The position numbers were made by a program, and so were the translations under genes. Positions 7,109 through 37,010 of a stretch of DNA of 64,000 nucleotides are shown in pieces. The notes below the pieces were generated by a model that saw nothing but the letters and a program-made list of their open reading frames with translations, made no database searches and was not told where the DNA came from. Position 1 is the stretch's first letter. Each line of letters starts with the position of its first letter. Source of the stretch: Candidatus Micrarchaeota archaeon (GTDB lineage Archaea > Micrarchaeota > Micrarchaeia > Norongarragalinales > UBA8480); contig JAZDHP010000005.1 in assembly GCA_043805855.1 (NCBI GenBank), positions 1,132 to 65,131 on the forward strand. Reading direction: 5' to 3'.

Positions 7109-8125
7109 TTAAGGTCTTTCTCTTTCTTTTACCGCCTCAATGGGCTTTTCTAATAAACGTAAATCACATGATTTATTGCGACCAATTACAAACCTTCTCT
7201 CTTTACGCGGGTCAAATGTAAACTCCATATTTGCTGTTGCCCCTATTATCCCTCCAACAAGTGTAACTTTTCTCGGAGAAGCGCGTTTAATTACAAATAT
7301 ATTATGCCCAACACCAAAAGCGTGCCCTTGAGCTAGTTGATACAACGCCCCAACCCAACCACGTCCTTGGCTAGGATCAGACGGAAAAGATTCTTCGACC
7401 GTTTGGCCATCCTTAGTGAGTTTAAAAGTTTCTACTTTTGAATTCCACTTAAATACTGGGGTAAACCCAATTGACGCCTCTAGCCTTTTAGGCTGGGGTT
7501 TAGTATGCAAGTCTCTTACAAAAATTGCGCCGTCTTTGAAAAATACTTCAGCGTGGCGTGGCGAAACAATTGCGTTATCAGCGTGGACAACCGTATTTTT
7601 TCTCATTTCTCGATTTTCACGATAAGCACTAACGGCGGAAAGTATTGCTCTTGAGCCTCTTACAATTGGAGAACGTCGGAATTCAATTAATTTCTTTGCT
7701 GAATGAAGAATTAGCGCTCTTGGCTGGCGTGGTGCGCTAGACACGGCTGTCACTATTGGCAGTTCATCTGTACCGCTAAACCATTCTTGTTCTAACACCT
7801 CTGGTCCAATAAGCTCCGCTGTTCTTTGCAGTAAACGAACAGTAACTTCTCCAATATCGTGAACTCCAACCATAGTTGTTGCATGTGAAAGTGTCTTGGC
7901 AAACGCTTGCTTAGCTTTTTGTCGCTGTACTTCTGGCAGTTTGTCAAGTGTTTCAAAGTAAGTACCTAAACGCAGCAAATTTAAATGAGATACTTGTTTA
8001 GCTTGAGCTGCTTTTGCAAGAGCAGTATATAGTACATCTCCTTTTCCACGTAGCCAGCCGTAGCGTTTCATTTTAAGCCGTTTATAAACCTCTTCAGCTT
8101 CGTGTGGAGAAAATGCTTCAGACAT
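7109..8125 (-). CDS. FHA-domain protein with N-terminal RHGWL-type module
   Basis: 338 aa. N-terminus MKRYGWLRGKGDVLYTAL...LLRLGTYFETLD matches the module of family B. The FHA-like core is IVRGSRAILSAV...NAIVSPRHAEVFFKDGAIFVRDLHTKP, and a second degenerate RFVIGRNKSCDLRL sits at the C-terminus. Confidence 0.55.
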   Translation of the reverse strand: MSEAFSPHEAEEVYKRLKMKRYGWLRGKGDVLYTALAKAAQAKQVSHLNLLRLGTYFETLDKLPEVQRQKAKQAFAKTLSHATTMVGVHDIGEVTVRLLQRTAELIGPEVLEQEWFSGTDELPIVTAVSSAPRQPRALILHSAKKLIEFRRSPIVRGSRAILSAVSAYRENREMRKNTVVHADNAIVSPRHAEVFFKDGAIFVRDLHTKPQPKRLEASIGFTPVFKWNSKVETFKLTKDGQTVEESFPSDPSQGRGWVGALYQLAQGHAFGVGHNIFVIKRASPRKVTLVGGIIGATANMEFTFDPRKERRFVIGRNKSCDLRLLEKPIEAVKERERP

Positions 8126-10112: not shown

Positions 10113-11366
10113 TTAACTTTTTTCCATTATGCGCGCAATTGCTTCAGCTGCGGCAGCGCGGTTGTCAAATGGCGTTCCGTGGCGTACGTCGCGCGATGGC
10201 TTTACAACTGGAATTTCTTTCGGGTCTGGCGGAACACGTACACTATAGAACCTTACCCCTTTTTGCGCTAGTTTAGAAACAACTAATTGTGAAAGTGCAA
10301 GTCGCTGTTCTTCATTTAGTTTAGTTTTAAGTGGATAAGTTTGCGGATATCCAAAGACTGTTGGAACGCCAACATCGTCTCGCTTTGCAAGGTAACGTGC
10401 CACGTGTTCTGCATTAACTTCAACAACTGCAGTTGACGGTGCAGCGTGAGTTTCCATGAGAAAAACCGCGTTGAGACGTGCTGGATTTACATTATCATGC
10501 AGTGGCGCGTTTTTAACTGACGGCACTGGCTTTCCTTTGAATATAATTTCAGGGTCCGACCCGTGTTTCCAAAAAGTTTCCTTTACCTCGCGCGGAAAAT
10601 CAGGAGAATCTGGAGAACCAAAAACTCCTTGGTGAAACATCCGTCCTCTTGAATAATATTGACTTGCCGCGCGGAATCCATATTTTCTATAGGGCCCGAC
10701 GACGTTTGCCCCTTTGGTTGAAAAAAGTATATGTACTCGGTCATCAGCGATTATTGAGCACCCGTGTAGATAACTAAGCAGAAAAGATAACCTACCTTTG
10801 CCAATTCGGGGATCTCCAATTAAAGCAAAGGCGCCTTTTTTTCCACACAGTACGTTACCGTGCAGCTCTGCGCCGGTTCTTCCAACTACGTTTTCTTTTT
10901 TCAAAGTGTGCTCTGGATCTTTGTGATAGTGAGTACCGTAAGCTTCTGGGTCAAAAAATTGCTGCTTATTAATTAATCTAGTTAAAGCAGTTGAAACGGA
11001 GCCAAGGTTAGCTTCGGGAACGTCAGAAATTCCCTGCATGGCTATTGGCGTTGCACTTTTTTGTAAATGGTGAAGGTCATCTAGCAATAAACTAGCAGCT
11101 AGAGCTGGATTTTGTTCAACTACTCTAGCGTGAGTTGCGACAAGTGGCAAAACATGTTGACGTACAAAATGATCTCCACGTGCATGGTAAAGCCCTAGAA
11201 TAGCATCGTTTATTCCTTTTACTGTTTTTGCAGCGTCTTCATTTTTTGAACCAATATCTGCAAGGCGAATGGCCATTCGGTCTCCACCGTGGCGCAGTAA
11301 GCCATAGGCGCGGATTCCATTTTTTTCAAACCACATTTTTGCATGTTCCATTTTTTCTATTGTCAT
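10113..11366 (-). CDS. HprK-fold P-loop kinase-like protein with N-terminal HG(L)L module
   Basis: 417 aa. LHGNVLCGKKGAFALIGDPRIGKGRLSFLLSYLHGCSIIADDRVHI aligns position-by-position to the HprK C-domain (degenerate Walker A, GKG). The N-terminus RAYGLLRHGGDRMAIRLADIG resembles the repeats of the 5482 protein. Confidence 0.5.
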   Translation of the reverse strand: MTIEKMEHAKMWFEKNGIRAYGLLRHGGDRMAIRLADIGSKNEDAAKTVKGINDAILGLYHARGDHFVRQHVLPLVATHARVVEQNPALAASLLLDDLHHLQKSATPIAMQGISDVPEANLGSVSTALTRLINKQQFFDPEAYGTHYHKDPEHTLKKENVVGRTGAELHGNVLCGKKGAFALIGDPRIGKGRLSFLLSYLHGCSIIADDRVHILFSTKGANVVGPYRKYGFRAASQYYSRGRMFHQGVFGSPDSPDFPREVKETFWKHGSDPEIIFKGKPVPSVKNAPLHDNVNPARLNAVFLMETHAAPSTAVVEVNAEHVARYLAKRDDVGVPTVFGYPQTYPLKTKLNEEQRLALSQLVVSKLAQKGVRFYSVRVPPDPKEIPVVKPSRDVRHGTPFDNRAAAAEAIARIMEKS

Positions 11367-14659: not shown

Positions 14660-17600
14660 TCAATCATTATCTCCATTTTTAGCATTGTTACAATTAACGT
14701 CTGGTTTGAAATCTTTTCCTTCAAGCTCATCACTTACTCCATCGTTAGATATGACTGCACATACTTGTGGCAACGTCACTTTATTACCGCTGCGTAAATT
14801 ATACTCTCGCTCTGCGGTTTTTAAAACACGAACTGAAATTCCTGGGCTAAGGCCGCTAGCGGAACAAGATATCGTATCGTCAAGTTTAGCGGGTAAGAAG
14901 AATGGCCCGGGATTTGCAGCTTTCCATAAGTTTTCCACTGAAATTCCGCCAATGGCGCCAGCTAATCCAAGAATTATTGGACACCCAGCAATGTTTGTGC
15001 CCGGAGCAAAGCAAAGTAAACCAAGTGCAAAGCCAGTTAGTCCAATTGAATTGCCTCCACCGCAATTTCGCCCGATGGCTTTTTCATTATCGCGAACTTC
15101 AAACAAGTACTGGCCATTATTATTTCCTGTCCCTACAAACCGTAAGATAGCGGTAGTGCCACTTATCTTAAGCTTTGTAACATCATTTACACTAAAATTG
15201 TAAATTCCTTCGGTATTATCTGAGTCCGAAATTGCAAAATCCGCTAATTTCTTTATTGGTTTTCTAAATTTAACTTGGCGAATTAATTTATCCTCATCGC
15301 TATACACGTCAAAATTATAATGATAGTCTTCATTTAGCCACTTATCAAGTGGACCAAAAACAGAATAGAGTTCAACTTCAGCGACATCGACATCAACGCT
15401 ACCAACCCCCGTAAATGCCTTTGGTTTCTTTTTTAATTGTATAAACTTAGCTAATAAAAGAGGCGTTTCTACATTATCTATAGATTCTCCGCATATACGA
15501 GAATTGCCAACCCCAACACCTTCTCCAGATCGACCTAATACGTCTCCTAAACCTATCGGGTTGTCATAATGCAAATTACAGTCCATTTTATCACTGAATG
15601 CAGGGTCGTAAGCTGTAACAAACTTTATTTCTGGTTTTGATAAGTCAATTCCACCTAATCTAAAGTATTGCCCAGTAGCAAGTTGCACCGAATCACCGAT
15701 TTCTAACTGACATCTTAGCCAGTTTGGATTAGGCGCACTTATCTTTACACAATTTTTATCATAGTAAGCCGTATTATCAAGTCTAAAAGAAGCTTTAGCT
15801 TCACTAGTGTGGCAATCTTCATTTAAGTTTGGCCAATACTTACACATGTACCTTGTAGAGCTAGGCCTACTTTCTATTTCTGCTCTGAATGCAACTGGCT
15901 TTTTCACTTTGATGTGATTATTAGATATAACGTCAGCAGCAAGGAAAGAACTAGCGTCAAATGACACAGAACTGACCCCGTTATATATCTGCTTTGAACC
16001 TAAATCAATTAAACCAATTTGATCTATTTCGTTTTGATATTCAACGCGAAATTTAGCGGTCTCACCATCATATTTTGGATCAGTGCACAAACGTAAGATA
16101 AAACTATCTCCAGGAGCTATAGCATCGCCATCTTTCAAGTAACTAATTGTACCATCTACGTTGGTTTTTTGAAGTTCAATTGCGCTTGTAAGCGGTGCGC
16201 CTATTCTACCGCAAGCGTCGAAAGTTGCTTTGTTTAACTCAGTCGGCAAAGAAAACGGCGTTTCTGGGTAGTTTACAAACGATAACGGCGTAGCTTGCCC
16301 TTCTGCTTTTTGACCTGCCTGAGTCGTAACGATTGTTGGCCTAAAGCAATCAGCTGGATCACCATTCTTTTGCACACATTGATAGTATCGAGTTTCTAGA
16401 GTTGAAACGCCTCCTCCAACAGGCGCAGCTGTTTGTAGTTCTACTTTTATAGTATATTCATTTACCGCGTTTACTCCGACGTCACAACGGGAGAATTCAA
16501 GCGAATCAACTGCAGTTTCAGCAAGTGTTTTGTCAGCAACTTTGTAATTAGGCGCTTTTAGCGTGTACTTCTTTTGGTTTAGCTCGGTTACTTTTTGCGT
16601 TGTTTTATCTTTGCATGAATACTGAACCGCTATATACACGTCTTTTTTTCCTAGCGTTGCTAATCGTGTTTTGTCTAGTTCCACTTTAGTTGACACTTTA
16701 GTTAAACGATTCAAGTGTTCTGGAAAAGTTAGTCGAAAGATGTTAAACGTTGCTGGAGTTGCTGGTTTAAAGTAGCCGGGAGTTATTTTGTCAATTAGTA
16801 ATTGTCGGTCTGTTAAAGTAACTATACAATCATCTGAAACTTTTTGACCTGTTGGGTAAATTGCGCTTGCTTTGAAGCCAAATCTTTGACCCGTATCTCC
16901 TTTTACAGTATACTTTTGAGTATCGGCTTCTTTCGCACCGGTAAATGTTTGTTCATCAGTGAAAGAACCTCCAGTTTGTTGTTTTGTTACAATTACTTTA
17001 CGTTCATTTCCACCAGATGGAAAACTAGATTTTATTGTTAGTTCTTCACCAGACATGGCGTTACCATTGCAAACATCTTTTGTTCCGGCTAAAACTTGAA
17101 TTTTAGGTTGCTTGTTAGACGCACTTACTATTGGAGCCTCCACATGAGCCGGAGGTTCTGCTGGTTCAGCGGGGTTTAATTGTACTTGAGCCTCTGGTGC
17201 TTCTTTTGCTACTTTTGTTTGTTCGTAGGTAGCCATTATTTTAACTTCTACTTTTGCGTTTACATTTTGTGCTGAGGACACAAGTAGCTTTACAAATACT
17301 TTGCCGTCGTTTTCAAGTGCTTTTATTGCTCCTGCGTCGTCTTTAAAGTCGCAGTTTGTAATTAGCTCGTTGTCTTTTAGTTCAGCGTTGCAGCTAGCTT
17401 GTGATAGTTCACTGTTGTCTTTTGTTTGCACTGAAATTATCTTATACTTGTCAAATACAATTGGGCACGTTAGCTGCACTGTGACTGGGCTTGCGAATTT
17501 CCAAGCTGGCGTTACACTGACTTTCCTTGTTTCAGTTTCTCCGCATGCTGCGTCCCAAGTTTGTGCACCAAATGGAATTCCCGTTGGGCCGCCCATCATT

Positions 17601-20600
17601 GGACCTTGTGGTGCTGCAATTACATTTACGCGGATTGTCTTGCGCGCTCCATCTGGAAGTGTAACTTCGAGGTTTCCAGTTGCAGGGTAAGGTTGGCCAA
17701 CAAAGGAATAGTCGGCAGTTACTGTGATTGCGTCTTTTGTGCATTCGTCGATTTGTACAGCGTCTTTAACTGAATTTTGTGAAAACCCGTTGCCCATCTG
17801 GTATTGATTGTAGCCGTTTCCATTGTAATTATTGTAATTTGGCCCATATTGAGAGCCAGGTAATCCAACTGGATACGCACCTGGTCGATTGTACTGGTTT
17901 GCACCGTAGCCGTAATCTTGCCTTAGGATCCCGCCTGTTGAGCGGTCGTAGCTTACTTGTTGTTGCTGGTTGTAAGGTTGAAACGCTTGGTTGTACGGCG
18001 TTTGGTAGCCGTTGTAAGATAAAGGCGACATAAATGCTTGGGCTTGGTAAGCGCCTTGGCCAGTTTGGCACGCGCTGCAAGTTGCGCTAAGATGTACTGG
18101 CAATTGACTGCTTGTTGGTGCAGTTACTGGATTTGGAACGCATGCGCCGCACCCCCATTGCGAGGGAGTAACTTGCTGGCATTGGTTGCATTGCGATTGG
18201 CCGTTCATTGGCATTGTACACGCGGTGCACCACCATAAAACTGGAGTTGGCATTCCGCCTAGCACGCCACCTTGGTAAGTTTGACCGTAACCTTGACCAT
18301 ATCCTTGGCTATAACCTTGCTGGTATTGGCCAGCGTAGTTCATTCTCAAGCCAGATAAACGACAAGTTGGATCTGCTGATAAGCGTAGTGGAATTGAATA
18401 CGAGTCTTGCAAAAATGGCGGCATTGTAATTAATGTAATTGCGCCTGGCAATGGCGATGAATCGCTTCCAGTTGCAGCTGAGTTAATGCAACCTGGGCAT
18501 TCAACATCAACCATTAGAGGCAATTCTTCTGCTACTCTATACGTGCCAGCGCGTGCGGTAAACGTAGCAAGGCAGTTTGTGTTTGAAGTGACGTTGTTGA
18601 GAATTTTCAACGATAGCGTAGAGTCGCTGTTTGGCTCTATTGTTATAGATGTGGGAAATACTTTTAGTGGCACTGGATCGCCACCGCAATTAATTGACGT
18701 AGCAACGCGTATTGGTTCGTTCAATGCATTTGAAAGTGTAACTTGCTGTGCTTGTGGTTCAAGTGAAGACCCGGTAAATTCCATTGACTCGGGGTCAATT
18801 GCCAAGAAGTTTTTACCTTGCACAGTTACAGAGCATGTTTCAAGTGTCTTGAACCCTTCTGCTTCGACGCGGGCGCCGATTTCTCCAAGCCCAGTTGGGT
18901 TAACGTCAACTCGGTAGCGGCCAGTTAAACCATTGTTCTGCGAGCCGTCGCCTAGAAGTTGTTCTGGTTCGTTTCCAGAAAACGGCGAATTAGCACATTC
19001 GTATAAACCAACTGCTGCGGTTTCAACGTAGTTGTTGTTCTTGTCACGCACAACTATAGTTATTTTACTGTCTTGAAGTGCTGGCACTGTTGACGGCGCT
19101 ATTGTTGCTGTAAAGGCGTTTGTTCCAGATACAGTTAATTGCACTGGAATTTGAAATGTTTTACTTCCGCTGCGTAGTGTAAATGTCAACGGCGCGTCTT
19201 GGCTTACTTGCAACGGCGTTAAAGTCATTGACATTTTTGCTTTTTTGTTTGGAAGCGAAGTAAAGGGAAGGTTGAAAGTGCGGCCGCTTGTTGTTATTGC
19301 GCTAGCTGTAGTTGTAGCTGTTCCATCGTCTGCGAATGAAACTTTTTCTAAGCCGCTTAGAGTTTGGCGTGAGTTTTTCACGTTGAAGTGCTCAGTAGTT
19401 AAGCCAAGTGAATCAATTGAAACTGGCGAAAGTAATTCTAGTTCAAAGGTAAAGTCTTTTGCAATTTGCGGTTGGTATGTTGACGGGTTTCCCTGCGATG
19501 CACTATCAAAAAGGATTGCTTTCCAGCAAACGTCATCTTCAGTGCAAGTTAGTGTTTGTTGCGTTACTGGGATTGATTGAGTTACAACGCGCATTTGACA
19601 AGTGTCTTCTGGAGTTAAACGTAAACCTTCATCAATTTGTTGGCGTAGCGAGTCAAGTAGTTCAGTGTCGCTTGGGTAAATTAAAGGTAAGCCGTCTTTG
19701 AATGCAAATGCCTTGTAGTTTATTTTAATTTCAGCTCCTGCTTCTGCGGTTTTTGAAACTTTTACATTAACGACAAATTCTCTTGTGCCTGTAAAGCCAC
19801 GTGGGAACGAGAAGTAAACCCATTTCATTTCTTCACCAGCGTTGGTTTTGCCATTGTAACAAGATGAAGTTGAAGTGGCTGATGTTGACGTGGTTGAATT
19901 ATCTAACTCGCCGTTGTTTTCAGTGCTTTCCACGCTTTTTAATTCAGAGTCACTTTGAACATAAGGCGCGCCGTTGGAGTTGAATGAAGTTATAACCGCT
20001 GAACTCTCCGCAGTTGTTTGTTCGTCGCCAACTTGAACGTAAAACCCGGCGTTTTCGTCAACGTTTTGCGGCATGTTAACTGCGAATTTTGCACTGTACG
20101 TTTCTGCGTTGGCAACTTCTTTTGCTTTTACTCCCCGCGAGTCAAATAAACCAAGGAAGTTTACAGTTGCGCTTTGCGCGAGTGAAACTGGAAATAGTGT
20201 AACTGTTTCTTTTGCCTGTTCTGCTGGCGAAAATGTTTTTGTTGAAGTAACATAAGTTAAATATCCTGGCGCAGTTGCGCGTATTGTAAATTCTTTATTT
20301 GCAGCAACTGGCAAAACACAAGTACCGTTTAGCACGGTGCACGAAGAAACTGGAATTCCCTCTACAAGCGCTTCAATTGCACCGTTTGGGATTAGCTGGT
20401 CTGTTGCTAAATCTTTTAACGTAATTGAAACATTTGCAGGCATCGCAACTAAGTCAACCGTTAAAGATAACGGGGCGCTTGTTACGTCGACAACGTCACT
20501 TTGTCCACTTGCGGATTGTTTGGAAGCCTTTGCGTAAACTTTGTAAGCTGCACCTTCAACGGCTAATGGGATTGTCGCGTTTGCAATTCCTTCTCCGCCG

Positions 20601-21940
20601 GCAGTTAATGCTGGAATACCAAGGAAGTAGCCGCCGAATCTATATAAGGCAACTTCTGCGTTTGAAGCGGGAAACCCATCTTCGCGTACAACTACAGTAA
20701 CTGAAACTGAGTTTCCAGGAAGCACTTCTTCAAGGGCAATTGTTTTAACTGCGCCTGCTGCGATTCCAGCTAGGAAGCCAGGTAAGTAACCTTCACTATA
20801 AGCAGTTGCATATGCGTTTGTACTTTGCGAAACTGTAAATGTTGCTTCGCCGTTTGCGTTTGTATCTTGAGATTCAATTAAATTGTTAGACGCTGCGTCG
20901 AATAATTTTACAACGCCTTCAATTCCAGTTCTCTCGGCGTTTAGCAAAGTTATTGTAATTGTACTTTGCGGTGTTGAACGGCGAGCTAGTTGAATTGGTA
21001 ACTCGTTTGCGTTTGCAGTTGGAGTAAATTCCTGCGAGTAAGTTTCAAACTGCGGGTGCTTTACTTGAACTGTGAAAGCTTCGCCATATGAAACGTTTTC
21101 AAAAACTACACTGCCATCTTGATAAGTGCGTTCTTTTTTCTTTTCAACGCTAGTTGCAACGTCGATTAAAGTTACAACTGCATTTTGTACTCCGCTGCCC
21201 GCGGAAGAAACGTGAATTGTGAAATCTCCAACGCTAGTTGGATCCCGCTGCGTAAGCTGTACTGTTATTGTTATTGGCGTTGTGCTTTCAAGTTGTTCTA
21301 CTGTTACTGGCTGTTGAGTCGCTTGTACTCCAACAGCAGTTACAGAAATTGTTCCCTGCGATAGCATTGACTGCTCAACAGTTATTATCGCGTTGCCGCT
21401 TGCATCGGTTGTTGCCAACGGTGCGAAGTCACCGTTTGCAAATGTTAATTGCACTTGCGCACCTTGAACAGATTGACCTTGCGAGTCAACTACTCTAACA
21501 TTTACATCTTGAGTTTCTGGTTGCAGCGAGCGTAATGTAATCGAACCTGAAAGTGAAGAAACATCACGCGATGCTGGCGTAAATCCGTCTGCACTTACAC
21601 GTATAATTGCATTTACTGGAACGCCTTGTAGGCTAACAGTTCCATCTTGGCCTGCGCGTGTTTCTGAAATCGATTGGTTGTTTACTAGCACTTGTACAAC
21701 TGCTCCTGAAACTGACCTGCCGAGAGTGTCTTTAACTGTTAGTGAAACATTTTTCTTTTCTACAAACACCCCTGGCGCGAGGTAAAAAGCCGCAATTGCG
21801 AGTATTAATATTAAAACAAGCGGCACAATTAAATGTGGAAACGGCAATCCCTTTTCTGCTAGTTTTTCAACTAACTCTAGGTATTTTTCTTTTATATTTT
21901 GTAAAAAGTTTGGTTCAGCTTGTTCGGCCATTACACGCAC
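14660..21940 (-). CDS. Giant (2426 aa) cell-surface protein: N-terminal TM anchor, many Ig/CARDB/carboxypeptidase-regulatory-like beta domains, Cys-rich and Q/Y/G/N-rich low-complexity region
   Basis: Single uninterrupted 7.3-kb ORF. N-terminus ...PFPHLIVPLVLILILAIAAFYLAPGVF is a signal anchor. Motifs such as TVxDxxGxPVxGAxVxL recur. The low-complexity stretch is QYQQGYSQGYGQGYGQTYQGG...YNQAFQPYNQQQQ. Confidence 0.85.
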   Translation of the reverse strand: MRVMAEQAEPNFLQNIKEKYLELVEKLAEKGLPFPHLIVPLVLILILAIAAFYLAPGVFVEKKNVSLTVKDTLGRSVSGAVVQVLVNNQSISETRAGQDGTVSLQGVPVNAIIRVSADGFTPASRDVSSLSGSITLRSLQPETQDVNVRVVDSQGQSVQGAQVQLTFANGDFAPLATTDASGNAIITVEQSMLSQGTISVTAVGVQATQQPVTVEQLESTTPITITVQLTQRDPTSVGDFTIHVSSAGSGVQNAVVTLIDVATSVEKKKERTYQDGSVVFENVSYGEAFTVQVKHPQFETYSQEFTPTANANELPIQLARRSTPQSTITITLLNAERTGIEGVVKLFDAASNNLIESQDTNANGEATFTVSQSTNAYATAYSEGYLPGFLAGIAAGAVKTIALEEVLPGNSVSVTVVVREDGFPASNAEVALYRFGGYFLGIPALTAGGEGIANATIPLAVEGAAYKVYAKASKQSASGQSDVVDVTSAPLSLTVDLVAMPANVSITLKDLATDQLIPNGAIEALVEGIPVSSCTVLNGTCVLPVAANKEFTIRATAPGYLTYVTSTKTFSPAEQAKETVTLFPVSLAQSATVNFLGLFDSRGVKAKEVANAETYSAKFAVNMPQNVDENAGFYVQVGDEQTTAESSAVITSFNSNGAPYVQSDSELKSVESTENNGELDNSTTSTSATSTSSCYNGKTNAGEEMKWVYFSFPRGFTGTREFVVNVKVSKTAEAGAEIKINYKAFAFKDGLPLIYPSDTELLDSLRQQIDEGLRLTPEDTCQMRVVTQSIPVTQQTLTCTEDDVCWKAILFDSASQGNPSTYQPQIAKDFTFELELLSPVSIDSLGLTTEHFNVKNSRQTLSGLEKVSFADDGTATTTASAITTSGRTFNLPFTSLPNKKAKMSMTLTPLQVSQDAPLTFTLRSGSKTFQIPVQLTVSGTNAFTATIAPSTVPALQDSKITIVVRDKNNNYVETAAVGLYECANSPFSGNEPEQLLGDGSQNNGLTGRYRVDVNPTGLGEIGARVEAEGFKTLETCSVTVQGKNFLAIDPESMEFTGSSLEPQAQQVTLSNALNEPIRVATSINCGGDPVPLKVFPTSITIEPNSDSTLSLKILNNVTSNTNCLATFTARAGTYRVAEELPLMVDVECPGCINSAATGSDSSPLPGAITLITMPPFLQDSYSIPLRLSADPTCRLSGLRMNYAGQYQQGYSQGYGQGYGQTYQGGVLGGMPTPVLWWCTACTMPMNGQSQCNQCQQVTPSQWGCGACVPNPVTAPTSSQLPVHLSATCSACQTGQGAYQAQAFMSPLSYNGYQTPYNQAFQPYNQQQQVSYDRSTGGILRQDYGYGANQYNRPGAYPVGLPGSQYGPNYNNYNGNGYNQYQMGNGFSQNSVKDAVQIDECTKDAITVTADYSFVGQPYPATGNLEVTLPDGARKTIRVNVIAAPQGPMMGGPTGIPFGAQTWDAACGETETRKVSVTPAWKFASPVTVQLTCPIVFDKYKIISVQTKDNSELSQASCNAELKDNELITNCDFKDDAGAIKALENDGKVFVKLLVSSAQNVNAKVEVKIMATYEQTKVAKEAPEAQVQLNPAEPAEPPAHVEAPIVSASNKQPKIQVLAGTKDVCNGNAMSGEELTIKSSFPSGGNERKVIVTKQQTGGSFTDEQTFTGAKEADTQKYTVKGDTGQRFGFKASAIYPTGQKVSDDCIVTLTDRQLLIDKITPGYFKPATPATFNIFRLTFPEHLNRLTKVSTKVELDKTRLATLGKKDVYIAVQYSCKDKTTQKVTELNQKKYTLKAPNYKVADKTLAETAVDSLEFSRCDVGVNAVNEYTIKVELQTAAPVGGGVSTLETRYYQCVQKNGDPADCFRPTIVTTQAGQKAEGQATPLSFVNYPETPFSLPTELNKATFDACGRIGAPLTSAIELQKTNVDGTISYLKDGDAIAPGDSFILRLCTDPKYDGETAKFRVEYQNEIDQIGLIDLGSKQIYNGVSSVSFDASSFLAADVISNNHIKVKKPVAFRAEIESRPSSTRYMCKYWPNLNEDCHTSEAKASFRLDNTAYYDKNCVKISAPNPNWLRCQLEIGDSVQLATGQYFRLGGIDLSKPEIKFVTAYDPAFSDKMDCNLHYDNPIGLGDVLGRSGEGVGVGNSRICGESIDNVETPLLLAKFIQLKKKPKAFTGVGSVDVDVAEVELYSVFGPLDKWLNEDYHYNFDVYSDEDKLIRQVKFRKPIKKLADFAISDSDNTEGIYNFSVNDVTKLKISGTTAILRFVGTGNNNGQYLFEVRDNEKAIGRNCGGGNSIGLTGFALGLLCFAPGTNIAGCPIILGLAGAIGGISVENLWKAANPGPFFLPAKLDDTISCSASGLSPGISVRVLKTAEREYNLRSGNKVTLPQVCAVISNDGVSDELEGKDFKPDVNCNNAKNGDND

Positions 21941-23524: not shown

Positions 23525-24228
23525 AAGTTGTTTTGGTTTGGAACGAGCACCCGACTGAAGTTGTTGCGGGTTTCCATGCGAGGAAAGTTGCCGAAATTCT
23601 GAAAAATAAATACGGACACGACGTTGTAATTGAAAAAATTCCAGTTGCCGAGACTAACTATGGCATAATTAGAAATGGAAAGGGAAACAAAGCAAATCAA
23701 TTGCTTGCGCTTAGAGATTCTATAGATTTTTTTCCAAAAGATCCAAGTGGCACAAAGTTTATGTTTAATTTCCACGCTGCACCCGCAGAAAGAATAGGAA
23801 AAAGCACACAAATGCCAGCTAGACTTTTCAAGGTGAGTCATAAAAGATGGCAAGATAATCTTGAAAGATTTGCAACTGAAATTACAATAATTAAAGGAAA
23901 AGGCCGCCAATATGCAATTGAAATGCCTGGATATTTCACTCGCATCCCGGGAAACGCTTATAGAAAAATGCTAGAACAAAAACGAGAATTTGAAACTAAA
24001 GAAAGATCAAAAATTGATAGAAAAATCAGCGCTGGAACATACACCGCTAGAGACATACTTAAGCTAATGGAATTTGCAACTGCAACGCAAAACACTTACA
24101 CTATACAAAGAACCGCACTTCATACTAAAAGACAAAAGAAATTTTTGTCAAGCGACGTTTCCAAAAAAATCGCAGCAGCGATTCACGAGAGAATCAACGC
24201 CAGTAATACCAAACCGCGTAGAACGTAA
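23518..24228 (+). CDS. Paralog family A member 1 (MAKVVLVWNEHPTEVVAGFHARKVA... / ...KIAAAIHERI). Putative metal-hydrolase-like N-terminal domain.
   Basis: 236 aa. One of four paralogs, with 28486, 52914 and 53627. Conserved HxxE (NEHPTE), FNFH, IE(M/L)PG and a C-terminal S.KIAAAIH. A TATA-like gtaatataaaaag lies ~30 nt upstream. Confidence 0.7.
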   Translation: MAKVVLVWNEHPTEVVAGFHARKVAEILKNKYGHDVVIEKIPVAETNYGIIRNGKGNKANQLLALRDSIDFFPKDPSGTKFMFNFHAAPAERIGKSTQMPARLFKVSHKRWQDNLERFATEITIIKGKGRQYAIEMPGYFTRIPGNAYRKMLEQKREFETKERSKIDRKISAGTYTARDILKLMEFATATQNTYTIQRTALHTKRQKKFLSSDVSKKIAAAIHERINASNTKPRRT

Positions 24229-24688
24229 CCAGTCCAATTATGAGCGTTAACCGAAAGAGCACGTCGTGCAGTGGGACAAAAGCAGCTGTACCAAAACTAT
24301 TAATTGTAAACGCGATGCGAGCAGCGTTGAACAGCAAAAAGAAAACCACGCCAACAACAATTCCTTTTATTCTATAGTTGACGCTCCTATCTGCGCTGGC
24401 AGAAATAAAGCCAATTAACAACGCTAGCTCTAAAGCGCCGGAGCACAAGTCGCTAATTTCAATATCTCCACCTGGAATGAGCAAATGAGGAAATAACGGA
24501 GAGCCGGTGAAAACTAGCGAAGCGGATTTTCCAAGGAGCGTGAGGAAGAATTGTGCACCGCGTGCGGCAATTTCGTGGAGGAAAGTTGTGAACGTGAACA
24601 AAAAGTAAAGCGGAACTGCTATTGCAGCGGTTGTCACGATGAATTTAACTGCTTTTTGCAAATCATTAATTGCCATAGCTCTAATCAT
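24194..24688 (-). CDS. Mini archaeosortase/exosortase-like membrane protein
   Basis: 164 aa, about 5 TM segments. A Cys-Ser-Gly motif (DLCSGAL, C82), an Asn-x-x-Arg (FNAARIAF, R124) with Cys-to-Arg spacing of 42 aa, about the 41 aa I recall between the catalytic Cys173 and Arg214 of Haloferax ArtA. The family call is weak. Confidence 0.4.
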   Translation of the reverse strand: MIRAMAINDLQKAVKFIVTTAAIAVPLYFLFTFTTFLHEIAARGAQFFLTLLGKSASLVFTGSPLFPHLLIPGGDIEISDLCSGALELALLIGFISASADRSVNYRIKGIVVGVVFFLLFNAARIAFTINSFGTAAFVPLHDVLFRLTLIIGLVTFYAVWYYWR

Positions 24689-24867: not shown

Positions 24868-27747
24868 ATGGTTGACTTTACAAGTATAGAAAACAAATGG
24901 CAAAGCAAGTGGTACACTGAAAAGATATTTGAACCAAAAACTGAAAAAAATAAAGAGAAATTCCTTTTTACCGTGCCATACCCGTATGTTTCTGGCGCGT
25001 TGCACGTTGGCCACGGGCGAACCTACGTCAACGGAGATATCGCTGCGCGGTTCAAGCGCATGCTTGGTTACAACGTTATGTGGCCAATTGCGTTTCACAT
25101 AACCGGTACTCCAGTGCTCGCGGTTAGCTCAAAAATTGCAGCTGGCGACGAAGCTACGATTAAACTTTACAACGAATACGTTTCCATCTACGAAGAGGAC
25201 AAGAGCAAAGTTCCCGCGATTGTAAAAAGTTTCACTGAACCATGGAAATTGGTGAATTACTTTTCTAGCAAAATGATTCAGGATTTCAAGTCAATTGGTT
25301 TTTCACTAGATTTGTCGCGTCAATTTACAACTGGCGACAAGGAGTACAACGCGTTTGTCACGTGGCAGTTTCACAAGTACAAAGACGCTGGCTATTTGAA
25401 ACAAGCTAGCTACCCAATTCTATATTGCGTTAATTGCAAAAACGCAGTTGGGGAGGACGACATTCAAGACGCTGACACTGAACCAGTTGAAGTGCAGAAG
25501 TTCACCGCACCGAAATTTAAATTAAAAGGAGAAAAGGCGTTTCTCGTTACCGCCACTTTAAGGCCAGACACAATTTATGGCGTTACTAATCTTTTTGTTA
25601 AACCCGGCGTTACTTACGTTCGCGGCAAAGTGGAAATAAACGGAAACCCCGAAGAGTGGATATTATCACCGCAAGCTGCAGAAAAATTAGCGTTTCAGCA
25701 AATTAAATTTACAAAAATTGCAGAGATAAATGGAGATTCTTTAATTGGTAAAGAAGTTGAAACACCAACTGGTTCTATTGTACCAATTGTACCTGGAGAA
25801 TTTATAGAAGAAGAAACGGGAACTGGAATCGTTCACTCTGAACCTTCAGATGCTCCGTTTGACTTAGTTGCAATTGAAGAGTTGAAACGCGATGAAAAAA
25901 CACTTGCGCAATACCCCGGCTTGAAGGAAAAAGTAAACGCGATAAAATTCAAACAAGTAATTTCATGTTCAGGGTATTCAGAATGCCCCGCGTTGGATTT
26001 AGTGAAAAAGTACAACGTAAAAACTACAAAACAAGCAGATGTGCTTAACAAAATTACTAAACAACTTTACAAAGATGAGTTTTACGGCGGCAAAGTTGTA
26101 AACAGCGGCGAGTTCAATGGATTGCCAGTTGAACAAGCAAAGGAAAAGATGGCAGCTTGGCTTGAAAAAACCGAAAAAGCTCATCACATTTACGAAACTT
26201 CTCGGTTAGCAAAGTGCCGCTGCGGTGGAAAAGTTGTAACCGCTGTTATGAACGACCAGTGGTTTCTTGATTTCAATGCAAAGGGCTGGAAGGAAAAATC
26301 CCACGCTTGCCTAGCGCAGATGAAAATCTACCCGGAAAATTACCGAAAACAATTTGAAGATACATTCGCGTGGCTTGACAAACGTCCATGCGCGCGGCGA
26401 CGCGGGCTAGGAACGCAATTACCGTTTGCAAACGAGTGGATAATTGAATCTCTCTCTGACTCGACAATTTACCCAGCGCTTTACACTGTTATAAAAGAAA
26501 TTCGAGTGAAAAAATTAAAACCAGAACAACTTACGGTTGAATTTTTCGACTACGTTTTCCTCGGAAAAGGAAAACCTGAAGACGTCGCGAAGAAAATAAA
26601 GTGCAAAGCGAAAGATCTTGAAGATATACGCGCGGAGTTCGTTTACTGGTACCCGTGCGACCAGCGGCACACGGCAATTGCACACATTACAAACCATTTA
26701 TCGTTTTACGTTTTTGCCCACGCTGCGATTTTTGACAAAAAATTCTGGCCAAAAGCAATCACAGTAAACGAACTTCTCATCAGCGAAGGTACAAAGATGA
26801 GCAAGAGTAAAGGCAACGTCATAACGCTCGACGCTATTCGTAAAAATTACTCTGCTGACCTTTACCGCTTGTACTCAGTTGCAACTGCTGATTTTGCAAG
26901 CGTGCTTGACTTTCGCAAGGCGGATATTGAAAACTCGCGGAAAAGCTTAACGAGGCTTTACGGCGTGCTGGAAAACTTAATTGAACTTTCAAAGAAGAAA
27001 ACAAGCGCAAAAAGTGGAAAGAAAAAAGAATCAAATTTAACTGCGTGGATTTTAAGCAAATTCGAAAGCCGACTTGAGAAAAGCACAGCTGCAATTGAAG
27101 GGCTTGAATTGCGTTTATATGCACAATCCGCAATTTATGGCATTTTAAACGACTGGGAATATTTCGCGAAGCGCGCAAGCGAAGAAGAAAAAATAACCAC
27201 AGCAAAGCACATTGTCAAAAAATGGATTTTACTGCTAACGCCTTTGATTCCCCACTCGTGCGAGGAGTTGAACGAACAGCTTGGCGAAAAAACCTACGCT
27301 TCCCTATCACAATGGCCTAACGTTGAAAAGAAATTGATAAACCCTAACGTTGAACAGCGCGAGGAGTACGTAAAAAACATTTTTGAAGACGTTACAAAAA
27401 TTAAAGATGTAATCCAGCGCAAGAACAACAAACTGAAATTAACAAAGTGTACGTTAATCGTTGCAAGCGACGCGAAATGGGCTGAACTCTTCGCCGCGTT
27501 GAAGAAAGATTCGCTTGAAAAGGTGAAAACAACAAGCGAAGCAATGCAGAAACACATGGAAAAGCACTTTTACTCACTGCAAGAACAGCACGTTAAGCAA
27601 ATTGACGAAATGGAAGTTATTAACCAAGCTAAAACATTTCTAGAAAAGGAACTCACACTGACAATTGATGTTGAAAGCGAAGAGAAAAGCTCGCATGAAA
27701 AAGCAATTCGCGCAGTGCCGTTGAAACCAAGCATTGTGCTGGAATAA
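24868..27747 (+). CDS. leuS: Leucyl-tRNA synthetase (archaeal/eukaryal type)
   Basis: 959 aa. Class I HIGH motif (PYPYVSGALHVGHGRTY), KMSKS motif (KMSKSKGNV), CP1 editing-domain-sized insertion. GGAG-type RBS 8 nt upstream. Confidence 0.93.
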   Translation: MVDFTSIENKWQSKWYTEKIFEPKTEKNKEKFLFTVPYPYVSGALHVGHGRTYVNGDIAARFKRMLGYNVMWPIAFHITGTPVLAVSSKIAAGDEATIKLYNEYVSIYEEDKSKVPAIVKSFTEPWKLVNYFSSKMIQDFKSIGFSLDLSRQFTTGDKEYNAFVTWQFHKYKDAGYLKQASYPILYCVNCKNAVGEDDIQDADTEPVEVQKFTAPKFKLKGEKAFLVTATLRPDTIYGVTNLFVKPGVTYVRGKVEINGNPEEWILSPQAAEKLAFQQIKFTKIAEINGDSLIGKEVETPTGSIVPIVPGEFIEEETGTGIVHSEPSDAPFDLVAIEELKRDEKTLAQYPGLKEKVNAIKFKQVISCSGYSECPALDLVKKYNVKTTKQADVLNKITKQLYKDEFYGGKVVNSGEFNGLPVEQAKEKMAAWLEKTEKAHHIYETSRLAKCRCGGKVVTAVMNDQWFLDFNAKGWKEKSHACLAQMKIYPENYRKQFEDTFAWLDKRPCARRRGLGTQLPFANEWIIESLSDSTIYPALYTVIKEIRVKKLKPEQLTVEFFDYVFLGKGKPEDVAKKIKCKAKDLEDIRAEFVYWYPCDQRHTAIAHITNHLSFYVFAHAAIFDKKFWPKAITVNELLISEGTKMSKSKGNVITLDAIRKNYSADLYRLYSVATADFASVLDFRKADIENSRKSLTRLYGVLENLIELSKKKTSAKSGKKKESNLTAWILSKFESRLEKSTAAIEGLELRLYAQSAIYGILNDWEYFAKRASEEEKITTAKHIVKKWILLLTPLIPHSCEELNEQLGEKTYASLSQWPNVEKKLINPNVEQREEYVKNIFEDVTKIKDVIQRKNNKLKLTKCTLIVASDAKWAELFAALKKDSLEKVKTTSEAMQKHMEKHFYSLQEQHVKQIDEMEVINQAKTFLEKELTLTIDVESEEKSSHEKAIRAVPLKPSIVLE

Positions 27748-29835: not shown

Positions 29836-32109
29836 ATGACTGGCGAGTTCGTTATCAAGCAAGAGGGCAGCAAGCGTTTACTAATTATTGACTATAAAGG
29901 CGCGAGCGTTGCCCCAGACATTGCACTTTACCCGCAGGTAATGCGCGACGTTATTGAAAAGTTACAAACAAACGACGCAGACGAAGTTGTACTAGCTGAA
30001 TATTATGAGAGAATTTACAACGCTGAACAAACGTCAATGCTACGCGGAATAGCAGATTTAATTACAAAGATGGAAACTGAAACAGTTTGGAGTCCATCGC
30101 ACTTAGGCGGGGAACACAGTGACAAGAAAACTATCGCAGCGCGGCACGATGCTGTACTCGCAATTGTTAACCAAACGTACGTTGACCCGTTCACTGCTTA
30201 TCTCGAGTTAATAAAATTAGTAAAAGAAGGCGCTGGCAGTTATGCAAAGGCGCAAAGTGCTGGCGATGAAAAGGCTCTTGAAGATTTCAAAATTTTCCTC
30301 GGCACACTGCAGTTCATGAAAAGTTTGTTCGACAACACGTCGTTGATAAAAAAGAGCAAGCAATACCTGGCACAAATTGGTAAGATGCCAGAAGGCCGAG
30401 CGATTTACCACTCAATGTTCGAAAGCGCAATCAAACCGTCATTCATCGGGAGTAGGATTTTCTTCACTGGCGCGGAAACATTAGAGTTAGTTGACCAGTA
30501 CGAAGTGCTCGGCTCAAAAGTTTACATCTATAAACATCCGGAAAAAATCGAGTACCTTTACTACATTAACCCGCCAGAGTACACACTTTCGCCGGATAAA
30601 TACTTCCTCCTCCAGAAGACAAAAGAAGTTGTCGCGGGACATCGGCCAACTAATGTTGGGTTCATGGATATGGGTCAAGCGCGTAAATACTTTAGAAAGA
30701 TTTACGTTGCAACAATTGCAGATATTGCTAACAAGAACGATATTAAATTAACAGTAGACGAAAAAGAAGAGTTGGCAACAATTGTCTCGCGGTATACAAT
30801 TGGCTACGGTATTTTGGAACTGCTACTTTCAGACCGGCAGCTTACTGACGTTTACATTGACTCTCCACTGGGAGACAAGCCAATTTATTTAGTGCACTCA
30901 AAGTACGGACAGTGCCAGACGAACATTATTTTCTCTGAAGAAGAGGCAAAGGCAACTGTTTCGCGTTTCAGAGCTTTGTCAGGACGGCCGTTTGACGAAG
31001 CGCACCCGATTCTTGATTTTGACTTGGCTGATTTGCAAACTCGTATTGCTGCTATTGGAAAGCCACTTGCAGTTGACGGCACAGCGTTTGCGTTGCGTTT
31101 ACACAAGGACACACCGTGGACATTATCGCAGTTCGTAGATTTCAAAATGATGCCAGCATTGGCAGCAGGGCTCCTATCTTACTTCGTAGATGCACAGGCA
31201 TCGATGTTAATAGTCGGCTCTCGTGGTTCTGGAAAGACATCTCTCCTCCAGGCAATGATGCAGGAAATCCCGCAAAACTTGAGGATTATTGTGCAGGAAG
31301 ACACCCAAGAATTACCAATCCCGCAGTTGAAGCAACTTGGCTTTAATGTACAGCGTCTAAAAACACGACCGCCGCTTGGAGCGCAAAGTGACGCTGAAGT
31401 AAGTGCAGAAGATGCGCTGCGTACTGCACTGCGTTTAGGAGATTCAGTGTTAATTGTCGGCGAAGTACGTTCAGGAGAAGCAAAGGCGCTCTATGAGGCC
31501 ATGCGTGTCGGCGCAGTTGGAAACGTCGTCATGGGAACAATCCACGGCGAAAGCGCATATTCAATTTGGGACCGAGTAGTAAACGACTTAGGGGTTCCAA
31601 CAACTTCGTTCAAGGCAACTGACATGGTCATAGTTACAGCACCTATACGATTCAAAGGCTCTCTCAAGAGACAACGTCGTTTAGTTGAAGTTACTGAAGT
31701 TAAAAAAGAATGGACTGAAGACCCAGGAAAGGAAAATGGTTTCTTAAACTGGATGTTGTTCGACGCACACAAGGATAACATGGAGTTGTTCAGAGACGAC
31801 ATTAAGCAAAGCGAATGGATAAAGAAAGTCATGCGCAACCGCGGTATAAATTACGAAGACATCTGGAGCGAAATTGTAACCCGCGCTGCAAGCAAACAAC
31901 ATTTAGTCGACGTGAAGAACAAGCACAATATTCCAAAAATCCTCGAGGCAGAGAACAGTATACGCGCACACACGAAGTTAATGATGCTAGGCGAACGCCA
32001 GCGCGAGGAAAACGGCAAAGTTGACCACAAAGAGTTATTGTCAGAGTGGCAAAAGTGGGTCGACACCGTACTCGCGAAGGAAGTAATTGGATTAAAAACA
32101 CTGGGTTAA
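29836..32109 (+). CDS. Type IV pilus/archaellum-type secretion ATPase (FlaI/TadA/GspE superfamily)
   Basis: 757 aa. Walker A VGSRGSGKTSLLQAMM, Walker B/Asp box DSVLIVGEVRSGE, His box TIHGES. First gene of the pilus-like locus. Confidence 0.85.
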   Translation: MTGEFVIKQEGSKRLLIIDYKGASVAPDIALYPQVMRDVIEKLQTNDADEVVLAEYYERIYNAEQTSMLRGIADLITKMETETVWSPSHLGGEHSDKKTIAARHDAVLAIVNQTYVDPFTAYLELIKLVKEGAGSYAKAQSAGDEKALEDFKIFLGTLQFMKSLFDNTSLIKKSKQYLAQIGKMPEGRAIYHSMFESAIKPSFIGSRIFFTGAETLELVDQYEVLGSKVYIYKHPEKIEYLYYINPPEYTLSPDKYFLLQKTKEVVAGHRPTNVGFMDMGQARKYFRKIYVATIADIANKNDIKLTVDEKEELATIVSRYTIGYGILELLLSDRQLTDVYIDSPLGDKPIYLVHSKYGQCQTNIIFSEEEAKATVSRFRALSGRPFDEAHPILDFDLADLQTRIAAIGKPLAVDGTAFALRLHKDTPWTLSQFVDFKMMPALAAGLLSYFVDAQASMLIVGSRGSGKTSLLQAMMQEIPQNLRIIVQEDTQELPIPQLKQLGFNVQRLKTRPPLGAQSDAEVSAEDALRTALRLGDSVLIVGEVRSGEAKALYEAMRVGAVGNVVMGTIHGESAYSIWDRVVNDLGVPTTSFKATDMVIVTAPIRFKGSLKRQRRLVEVTEVKKEWTEDPGKENGFLNWMLFDAHKDNMELFRDDIKQSEWIKKVMRNRGINYEDIWSEIVTRAASKQHLVDVKNKHNIPKILEAENSIRAHTKLMMLGERQREENGKVDHKELLSEWQKWVDTVLAKEVIGLKTLG

Positions 32110-32161
32110 AACAACTTATTTAAAAACTCGTTTACAGTAAACTACTTTAGGTGAAAACTTT

Positions 32162-32719: not shown

Positions 32720-33123
32720 CTAAGTTGAGCACAATGGCCGAACAACTTGAAAAGCCGTGGCACTTGAAAGCTGCAGAAAGTTTAGGCCGCAGCGTAACGC
32801 CTCTATTTTCTGGAAAAGGCAAGTTAAAAGGACATGTAGCTACGTCGCCGGCGTTTGCGCCCTATTCAATTAGTTTTGTTGTGGATAGCAGACATCCTAA
32901 AGCGCAAGTGGTTAAAATAATCAACGGACGCAGCAAACGCGCGTATGTTTCAATTTATCCTGATGGCAGATTTGGTTCTTTAGCGCAGGGCACTCTTGGA
33001 ATAAGAACTTTAGCTGAATTTACAAGAGCAGCGCCTAAATCAAAGTTACTTAGGGACGTCCCGCAGTTAATCGCAGCTGCGAGAGCGGCGAACAAAGCTT
33101 TAAAGCAACACGCGCCCAAATAA
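32704..33123 (+). CDS. Small conserved hypothetical, tandem paralog 1 (PWHLKAA...ALKQHAPK)
   Basis: 139 aa. Aligns end-to-end with 33128..33511. Confidence 0.55.
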   Translation: MAKKIAKLSTMAEQLEKPWHLKAAESLGRSVTPLFSGKGKLKGHVATSPAFAPYSISFVVDSRHPKAQVVKIINGRSKRAYVSIYPDGRFGSLAQGTLGIRTLAEFTRAAPKSKLLRDVPQLIAAARAANKALKQHAPK

Positions 33124-33127
33124 AATT

Positions 33128-34283: not shown

Positions 34284-34335
34284 CTCCCCGACGTTACAAC
34301 TAACATATTTATACTTAGTTTGAATTGTTATTGTC

Positions 34336-36985: not shown

Positions 36986-37010
36986 ACCTGAAAGTTAAAG
37001 GAATTGAAAT

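Follow-up and report, generated by a model that had tools for sequence, protein, structure and literature searches.

A giant protein gene with a cysteine-bracketed low-complexity module

In a stretch of 64,000 nucleotides from a Candidatus Micrarchaeota archaeon (GenBank assembly GCA_043805855.1, contig JAZDHP010000005.1, positions 1,132 to 65,131 of the forward strand; hereafter the window), we have found two genes encoding giant proteins, one complete, referred to as the giant, and one truncated, referred to as the paralogue (Table 1). Both contain a low-complexity segment rich in Gln, Tyr, Gly and Asn (Q/Y/G/N), and in the giant this segment belongs to a module with a cysteine at each end. 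The 16S-23S rRNA operon of the window matches archaeal Rfam models, showing that the DNA is archaeal. The open reading frame (ORF) of the giant is 100% identical to the record P0001, named 'MAG: carboxypeptidase-like regulatory domain-containing protein [Candidatus Micrarchaeota archaeon]' (MAG, metagenome-assembled genome). The annotated NCBI start is an ATG located 9 nt (3 codons) downstream of ours, resulting in a protein of 2423 amino acids (aa).

Table 1. Coordinates of the giant genes, their main segments and the pilus-like genes in the window. Residue numbers are those of the respective protein.
Feature	Position (nt)	Strand	Basis or remarks
Giant protein gene	14660-21940	-	ORF translation; 2426 aa from GTG; three Q/Y/G/N tracts
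N-terminal hydrophobic anchor of the giant, aa 37-55, LIVPLVLILILAIAAFYLA	21776-21832	-	Kyte-Doolittle 19-residue mean 2.96
Stalk of beta-sandwich (CarboxypepD_reg / Ig-like / PapD-like) domains, aa 56-1192	18365-21775	-	Pfam, orthologue identity, AlphaFold2 model
Whole low-complexity module, Cys1193 to Cys1400	17741-18364	-	Anchor motifs, insert statistics, model confidence (pLDDT)
Tract 1, aa 1204-1225, GQYQQGYSQGYGQGYGQTYQGG	18266-18331	-	Translation
Cysteine core, aa 1238-1291	18068-18229	-	WWCTAC-x9-CNQCQQ-x7-WGCGAC-x20-CSAC, 4x CxxC
Tract 2, aa 1309-1332, YNGYQTPYNQAFQPYNQQQQVSYD	17945-18016	-	Aligns to Y/F-G-Y-x-P-F-N-P-A-Y of orthologues
Tract 3, aa 1343-1386, YGYGANQYNRPGAYPVGLPGSQYGPNYNNYNGNGYNQYQMGNGF	17783-17914	-	Translation
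C-terminal conserved Gly-rich hydrophobic segment with Cys-x9-Cys-Pro hairpin, aa 2293-2335, LLCFAPGTNIAGCPIILGLAGAIGG	14936-15064	-	Hydropathy
Paralogous giant gene, C-terminus cut by window edge	1-4008	-	1336 aa here; CarboxypepD_reg, E 7.7e-23
Low-complexity tract of the paralogue, aa 1204-1320	49-399	-	No cysteines
T2SSE-family ATPase	29836-32109	+	Type IV pilus-like locus
Weak T2SSF-like membrane protein	34336-36423	+	Type IV pilus-like locus
Four ORFs of ~190-240 aa, each with one N-terminal hydrophobic segment	37367-39989	+	May be pilin-like

The only Pfam matches of the giant are CarboxypepD_reg (E 1.2e-18) and a weak Big_1, both in the N-terminal part. From the N-terminus, the protein consists of an amphipathic segment, one transmembrane helix, ~1150 aa of beta-sandwiches, the low-complexity module, and a fast-evolving region of ~900 aa. 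The amphipathic segment (KEKYL..V..L.EKG.P.PH) is conserved in the orthologue alignment, and all family members share the same single N-terminal helix; in the topology that we infer, the segment preceding this helix is cytoplasmic. The domain types and a total of 46 cysteines suggest that the bulk of the giant is extracellular, and both giants are very probably surface proteins.

The C-terminal hydrophobic segment ends ~90 aa ahead of the stop codon. Its hairpin pattern, C..P[GA].N[IV]..CP, is kept in 5 of the 6 orthologues, P0007 stopping short of this region, and a conserved FEVRRRD.P.IQDC motif is located N-terminal to it. The segment recalls internal fusion or membrane-insertion loops that are bracketed by a disulfide, an analogy that is speculative. 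The giant was also considered as an archaeosortase substrate with a C-terminal tripartite signal, which we rejected since the hydrophobic segment is not C-terminal and no basic tail follows it.

The module lies where the conserved N-terminal stalk (~1150 aa) gives way to a C-terminal half that evolves fast, as an insert of ~200 aa between beta-sandwich domains, bounded by C-R-L-S-G-L (Cys1193) and E-C-T-K-D-A-I-T-V-T-A-D-Y (Cys1400). A previous sequence-only reading of the window had placed three Q/Y/G/N tracts of the 2426-aa protein at 17780-18340; all of them are real, lie inside this interval and have an extreme composition. It had passed over the cysteines, both the flanking ones and those of the 4x CxxC core between the tracts, which are invariant (8/8) in an alignment of the giant with 6 full-length orthologues (42-46% identity; n=7). 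The W before the first core cysteine, TAPTSS.LP and GVLGG.P.P..W are equally invariant in this alignment. Tract 1 contains a tandem repeat of 12 nt x 3.2 (18281-18319) encoding GYGQ, and corresponds to a 10-residue expansion private to the source genome, of which P0003 has only a part. In tract 3, the orthologue alignment reveals a conserved skeleton (D.GYG..Y..R.G..P..LPGS...Y.N) and a private 8-residue insert, NGNGYNQY, adjoining a 9-nt x 2 repeat (17822-17839). Since the private expansions coincide with or adjoin these tandem repeats, part of the Q/N richness of the source genome arose recently through replication slippage.

We compared the composition of 80-residue windows with 2000 shuffles of each protein. 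The best window of the giant holds 52 Q/N/Y/G residues and that of the paralogue 43, against shuffled means of 28.5 and 27.0 and a maximum of 36 in both cases, a bias far beyond chance. In comparison with the rest of the giant, the insert is enriched in Y/F/W (14% vs 7%) and poor in K/R/D/E (4% vs 20%). The gaps between aromatic residues are also more even than in shuffled sequences, both at aa ~1292-1398 of the giant (coefficient of variation 0.48 vs 0.84; fraction of shuffles at or below the observed value 0.004) and in the tract of the paralogue (0.56 vs 0.85; fraction 0.019). Sticker-and-spacer low-complexity domains have been reported to show such even aromatic spacing. Searches with the insert and its cysteine core returned nothing significant in Pfam, NCBIfam or PDB sequences; the best Pfam match of the core was Zn_ribbon_6, below threshold (E 0.064, 13.7 bits vs a cut-off of 25).

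The second giant gene

The paralogue corresponds to the record P0012, which with 1713 aa is still partial, and hydropathy places its N-terminal anchor at aa 57-75. Residues 19-1018 of the giant align to residues 12-1009 of the paralogue with 25% identity (E 2e-48), and judging from this alignment the two are true paralogues over their first ~1000 residues. An analogous stretch had been reported at nt ~60-420 of the partial gene; it exists, with slightly different borders (Table 1), and starts at aa 1204 as does tract 1 of the giant. The claim that the tracts are conserved between the paralogues holds for position and composition but not for alignable sequence, since homology was not demonstrable by hhalign (probability 0.28, E 0.21) and the BLASTP matches between both tracts disappear under composition-based statistics. 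The N-terminal part of the paralogue tract (YGSYQ.PNL.D.RFPDAASY.S.P.GG...YQR) is conserved in P0013 and P0014 (58% identity), and in the C-terminal part, rich in Q/N/G (QNQYGAFGQQNAYGANGMNGQN...), the source genome has a private expansion.

P0014, which is not in the window and is 58% identical to the partial giant, bears the locus-tag prefix V1722, the same as the MAG of the window. The source genome probably encodes at least 3 members of the giant family, or the bin mixes strains. In another Micrarchaeota MAG with a syntenic locus, L001, the gene after the operon of the giant (26862-26927 onward) is another giant gene, encoding 2818 aa up to the edge of the locus. This gene probably represents the orthologue of the truncated paralogue and hints at the true length of the latter.

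Conservation and distribution of the module

The low-complexity module is not an accident of one genome. A tract rich in aromatic residues and Gly and poor in charges occupies the same position in the 6 full-length orthologues, in the orthologues of the paralogue at 58% identity, and in distant family members less than 30% identical. In the insert, identity to the orthologues ranges over 0.41-0.58 (0.58 in the bin of aa 1251-1300), ~0.55-0.7 in the stalk, and 0.14-0.35, mostly 0.2-0.3, in the C-terminal 1000 aa. Considered in bins of 50 aa, the stalk shows ~45-70% identity with an average of ~55%, and the C-terminal half ~25% among orthologues. As the insert is more conserved than the C-terminal 1000 aa, we consider that it is under constraint. 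The residue classes within the insert differ widely in conservation: Cys 100%, charged 87%, Pro 72%, aliphatic 70%, aromatic 60%, Gly 51%, and Q/N only 33%, the lowest value. The emphasis formerly given to Q/N is weakened, since this is the least conserved class and its amount in the source genome (0.24 of the insert, the family maximum, vs 0.12-0.18) was partly inflated by the private 12-nt and 9-nt repeats.

The family is rare: a profile of aa 1040-1480, searched against 1.84 billion representative proteins, gave only 27 matches at E <= 1e-3. About 15 of them align at ~aa 1000-1400 in proteins of 1500-3050 aa, and several others cover the repeated Ig-like domain only, as inspected in P0038 and P0039. 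An insert of the same kind at the homologous position was found in ~20 family members, and every named member is from Candidatus Micrarchaeota, the order Norongarragalinales included. A contig scan with narrow back-translated patterns recovered 3 close relatives, the taxonomic range being given by the protein searches. The isolate names of two related MAGs contain 'nzgw', which we take to suggest a groundwater origin.

In these members, the insert varies from 148 to 258 aa and is anchored by C.[LIV].G[FL] and [ED]C[TS]..[IL].V.A.Y. It has 11-19% aromatic residues (7-9% in the rest of the proteins) and 3-12% K/R/D/E (17-22% in the rest), is depleted in I/L/V, and mostly contains 8 internal cysteines in two four-Cys units (CxxC...CxxCQ or C-x5-C-xxPxx-C-x2-C). 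The compositional flavour changes from Q/N/Y/G in the source genome to a long (GYGT/GYGG)n run in P0024, P/Y/A/N/G in P0008, M/G/Y/F in P0020 and S/T/Y/G in P0040. Position, composition class and cysteines are conserved across the family, but not sequence or length. In P0026, P0032 and P0034, the best aromatic/Gly-rich window has nearly the same coordinate and, by eye, lies one loop further, in the following domain, which we take to mean that the tracts behave as loop insertions. Distant relatives lack the tract, P0016 having a Cys-rich segment and P0017 a PT linker at that place.

By inspection, the giant group, P0008, P0020, P0021, P0022, P0024, P0027, P0028 and P0040 have both flanking cysteines, and the paralogue group has neither; regular expressions confirmed the two anchors only in the giant group, P0008, P0020, P0021 and P0028. 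Taken together, these sequences delineate an unnamed family, restricted to one phylum as sampled, with an amphipathic segment and one transmembrane helix, a stalk of ~1000 aa and an aromatic insert. We did not find any description of the giant family or of the Cys-bracketed module in the literature, and neither Pfam nor NCBIfam has a model of it. Low-complexity tracts of the prion-like or aromatic kind are already known, as are giant adhesins with Ig stalks, but the Cys-bracketed, Cys-knotted aromatic loop and its family appear to be undescribed so far. We hold the anatomy and conservation of the module, as presented here, with high confidence.

Predicted structure

An AlphaFold2 (AF2) model of aa 1040-1480, built on the 7-sequence alignment, has an overall predicted local distance difference test (pLDDT) of 41.5. 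Only the flanks of the insert were modelled, with strands of pLDDT 60-80 on both sides (on the N-terminal side within aa 1040-1200), and the pLDDT is ~24 across aa ~1200-1392. Foldseek of this model against the PDB returned only Ig folds of the MSP/PapD-like/ASH type (E ~2e-4). The output has no query coordinates, and the match probably lies in the stalk domain before the insert.

Prion-like character

The tracts had been described as prion-like, which is partially sustained. The Michelitsch-Weissman criterion considers at least 30 Q+N per 80-residue window, and the maxima are 26/80 in the giant (window from aa 1310) and 19/80 in the paralogue. We re-implemented PAPA with the propensity table of the published script, counting scores >= 0.05 where FoldIndex is below 0; the best value of the giant is 0.043 at aa 1316, borderline and still below the cut-off, and that of the paralogue is -0.078. 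On the other hand, the composition of aa 1302-1392 is close to that of Sup35-N (Jensen-Shannon divergence 0.065, vs 0.188 to the rest of the same protein). In a crude log-odds scan for prion-like domains, illustrative only, with Sup35-N and FUS-LC as references set against the ORFs of the window, the best 60-aa window was positive in 2 of 35 ORFs, both giants (40.6 and 24.0 bits). PLAAC itself, which asks for an HMM core of >= 60 residues with a positive log-likelihood ratio over the proteome background, would probably flag the tract. The statement that such tracts are unusual in archaeal surface proteins was overstated, since candidate prion domains turned up in ~0.1% of archaeal proteins when these were surveyed with PLAAC, and cell-wall/adhesion categories were enriched among them (bioRxiv 10.1101/2020.07.20.212902).

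Interpretation of the module

We suggest, with a confidence that does not quite reach even odds, that the giant is an adhesin and that the module, located between its stalk and its head, serves as a disordered loop with multivalent aromatic 'stickers'. Outside the cysteine core, the insert has the sequence properties of sticker-and-spacer domains (pLDDT ~24, an excess of aromatics at even distances, a scarcity of charged and aliphatic residues), which do not hold when the core is included. The mechanism, a flexible loop acting through multivalent aromatic stickers, is more tentative. Cys1193 and Cys1400 may be joined by a disulfide and so staple the loop at its base, as suggested by the joint presence of the flanking cysteines in Cys-containing subfamilies and their joint absence in the paralogue group. 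If so bonded, the insert would be displayed laterally as a flexible loop that bears no load, and not as a load-bearing linker. The evenly spaced Tyr/Phe would act as multivalent weak 'stickers' with polar 'spacers' between them, as in proteins of the FUS/hnRNPA1 type or FG-nucleoporins, making reversible cohesive contacts with neighbouring giants or with the glycosylated envelope of a host cell. By our own estimate of ~4 nm per domain, the extended stalk would be longer than the pseudoperiplasm, which measures 20-25 nm in a cultivated Micrarchaeon (bioRxiv 10.1101/2021.04.28.441871), and the module would then be located near or beyond the S-layer. Adhesion to the host, as proposed in the sequence-only reading, is plausible.

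Several observations weigh against a sticker loop. The disulfide staple is deduced from co-occurrence alone, and the total number of cysteines in the module, although even in most members (10 or 12), is odd in P0008 (5) and P0028 (9) and, by hand count, in P0027 (9) and P0040 (7), so metal binding or free thiols may apply instead. The invariant cysteine core is probably structured, ordered by metal or disulfides, and over whole inserts with their Cys knots the even spacing of aromatics is not significant (z +1.2 to -1.4). The low pLDDT of the insert is weak evidence of disorder, since the alignment is shallow, with only 7 sequences. Moreover, the tract of the paralogue has no cysteines, so the two proteins may work differently, and the distribution of charges around the N-terminal helix is ambiguous, with a conserved EK[KR] right after it.

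Among other explanations, we give most weight to a passive hinge or spacer, although it is still doubtful: a disordered loop prone to slippage, contributing flexibility at most, whose composition avoids aggregation, proteolysis and glycosylation. Its variable length (115 to 258 aa), the poor conservation of the low-complexity sequence and the tandem-repeat expansions private to the lineage would fit, as would the location of the tract in another loop in P0026, P0032 and P0034 and its replacement by a PT-rich linker in P0017 or a Cys-rich segment in P0016. However, typical prokaryotic linkers are rich in P/T/S/E/K, while here an aromatic-rich, charge-poor class is kept even below 30% identity. 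Aromatic positions are evenly spaced and conserved at 60%, the C-terminal half as a whole is less conserved than the insert, and a role as inter-domain hinge would be ruled out if the flanking cysteines are bonded. The invariance of the 8 cysteines in CxxC pairs, of the W and of TAPTSS.LP speaks for a structured ligand-binding mini-domain, in which four-Cys knots (zinc-ribbon-like or disulfide) would scaffold aromatic arms that fold on binding, for example by stacking of Tyr/Trp on glycans of the host S-layer, or would form a metal- or redox-active CxxC site. The analogous C-x5-C-xxPxx-C-x2-C pair in distant members, the weak resemblance to Zn_ribbon_6 and the glycosyltransferase genes of the locus point in the same direction, but this explanation seems unlikely to us, since no Pfam or PDB similarity is significant, the Zn_ribbon_6 score being below its cut-off, even the core has no confident fold in the AF2 model, the tract of the paralogue group is devoid of cysteines, and their arrangement varies between subfamilies.

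A sticker loop is also more likely than heritable prion or amyloid templating. A genuine prion-like or amyloid domain, whose tracts would form cross-beta fibrils gluing cells or a self-templating surface state, is improbable. The closeness of aa 1302-1392 to Sup35-N and the exclusive position of the giants among the 35 ORFs speak for it, and some archaeal PLAAC-positive domains do form amyloid, but the sole adhesin-like archaeal candidate tested was negative (bioRxiv 10.1101/2020.07.20.212902). The Q/N count and the PAPA-type score fall below their cut-offs, Q/N is replaced by G/Y, P/Y/A or S/T/Y/G flavours elsewhere in the family, the conserved proline (7-15%) disfavours amyloid, and the Cys-knot core breaks up pure low-complexity stretches. 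Curli-like internal repeats, which would be imperfect strand-loop-strand units of ~20 residues with Q/N/G ladders, were not found by self-BLAST of the 200-aa insert, which contains only the 12-nt x 3.2 and 9-nt x 2 micro-repeats. Covalent cross-linking, by which Tyr- and Cys-rich loops would be oxidatively joined (dityrosine, Tyr-Cys) and harden a surface meshwork, has a very low probability. The exposed loop does combine 10-19% aromatics, mostly Tyr, with Gly and 8 cysteines, and resilin, Gly/Tyr-rich wall proteins of plants and mussel foot proteins offer an analogy. On the other hand, peroxidase, laccase and tyrosinase were not seen among the neighbouring genes scanned, Micrarchaeota of groundwater may inhabit low-oxygen settings, and we know of no archaeal precedent.

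An extension of the sticker loop that we regard as quite improbable is that the loops of many giants condense just outside the S-layer as a symbiont-host contact zone similar to FG-nucleoporins or a hydrogel, with the fast-evolving distal half and its hairpin engaging the host membrane or inserting into it. If true, this zone would hold the Micrarchaeon on its host, perhaps gating the passage between cells, and would be the first extracellular condensation of low-complexity domains in archaeal cell-cell attachment. Micrarchaeota, like other DPANN archaea, spend their life attached to another archaeon, and few of the molecules that make this contact are known. The predicted-disordered Tyr/Gly-rich loop with embedded cysteine knots is the most distinctive conserved trait of the giant family. 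If it is cohesive, sticker-and-spacer biology, mostly studied inside eukaryotic cells, would extend to the outside of archaeal cells, and a handle on symbiont attachment would be given by a 200-aa fragment, its defined Tyr and Cys positions, and the natural variants of G/Y, P/Y or S/T/Y flavour. If it is merely a tolerated hinge, it would be an ordinary compositional curiosity.

Comparison with known proteins

The tracts of the giant share with prion domains of the Sup35-N type, among which we count the archaeal candidates surveyed by Zajkowski et al., a Q/N/Y/G-rich composition, the near absence of charged and aliphatic residues, and slippage-made GYGQ/QGY repeats. They differ from these in their values below the cut-offs, the lack of conservation of Q/N, the probable extracellular location, the 8-Cys core and the conserved Pro. 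The resemblance to FUS/hnRNPA1 and FG-nucleoporins includes [G/S/Q]Y[G/S/Q] motifs, even aromatics with uncharged polar spacers, a predicted lack of structure, and conservation of the composition class without that of the sequence. However, those proteins are intracellular and eukaryotic, whereas the insert is a 150-260-aa loop of archaeal surface proteins with an apparent Cys staple and Cys knots. Gly/Tyr-rich wall proteins of plants, resilin, suckerins, mussel foot proteins and keratin-associated proteins also have extracellular G/Y repeats, as in the run of P0024, and Cys and Tyr co-occur in mfp-6 too, but these are eukaryotic and mostly biased over the whole protein, while the tract of the giant is a single loop of a multidomain protein.

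As for the whole protein, Embp, the Mobiluncus adhesin with 51 Ig domains, the nanohaloarchaeal SPEARE and the PKD/CARDB proteins of Mia14 are likewise longer than 2000 aa and have a beta-sandwich stalk. In giant Ig-domain adhesins of this kind, the distal part also evolves fast, several paralogues occur in one small genome, and a function in contact between cells has been proposed. There is no detectable sequence relationship between them and the giant, which has an N-terminal helix as anchor and not a sortase, PGF-CTERM or LPXTG signal, and the aromatic/Cys module is specific to its family. Micrarchaeota are known to carry several very large surface proteins, for which mediation of host contact was proposed (PMC5498576).

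The S-layer protein SLP_Mh comes from the same phylum, is located at the cell surface and has an N-terminal hydrophobic segment (bioRxiv 10.1101/2021.04.28.441871). We rejected this identity for the giants: SLP_Mh (PF05123) is a different protein of ~101 kDa, PF05123 has no match in either giant at E <= 0.1, and the giants are 2.5 times larger. They would have to span an S-layer of the SLP_Mh type or sit beside it.

Genomic context

The locus of the giant is syntenic with L001, where we found the giant gene, an upstream gene for a ~490-aa protein with N-terminal hydrophobic segments, downstream genes for proteins with no family match and for a glycosyltransferase, an archaeosortase-family gene, the leucyl-tRNA synthetase gene, a type IV pilus-like ATPase with a membrane protein, and the second giant gene. 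This gene content is consistent with a cell-surface island. Two or three giant paralogues are located within a conserved cell-surface neighbourhood. A neighbouring ORF of 959 aa was considered as an S-layer protein and rejected, being similar to leucyl-tRNA synthetase.

The archaeosortase-family gene of the window (24194-24688, minus strand), syntenic with the giant in L001, encodes an exosortase/archaeosortase-family protein of 164 aa with ~5 hydrophobic segments, closest to ArtD (TIGR04178, 35.6 bits vs a cut-off of 23). A candidate substrate could be the 1354-aa product of 44894-48958 (plus strand), since a signal-like segment is located at its N-terminus and a hydrophobic one begins at aa 1331, ~24 aa from the C-terminus. 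The type IV pilus-like locus occupies 29836-42468 on the plus strand. ORFs at 5482-6378, 7109-8125 and 10113-11366 (minus strand) and at 40026-41099 and 41131-42468 (plus strand) share the motif (K/R)(H/Y)GWL(P/R) ... L..(L/I)G..F. They encode soluble proteins with the motif at the N-terminus and no convincing family match, except for one weak match to FHA, and appear to form one paralogous family, with members dispersed near the giant genes and the pilus locus. A Fic/DOC-family protein is encoded at 51972-52892 (plus strand; E 1.4e-19).

Both archaeal rRNA genes, on the minus strand, are greatly expanded: the 23S (56452-60704) has 4253 nt vs 2987 nt of the model, and the 16S (61332-63768) has 2437 nt vs 1478 nt. 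Four ORFs encoding LAGLIDADG homing endonucleases, at 56954-57619 (plus), 58015-58575 (minus), 55952-56518 (minus) and 62398-62931 (minus), lie inside the rRNA genes or overlap their ends. This, together with the expansion, suggests that the 16S and 23S rRNA genes hold multiple introns.

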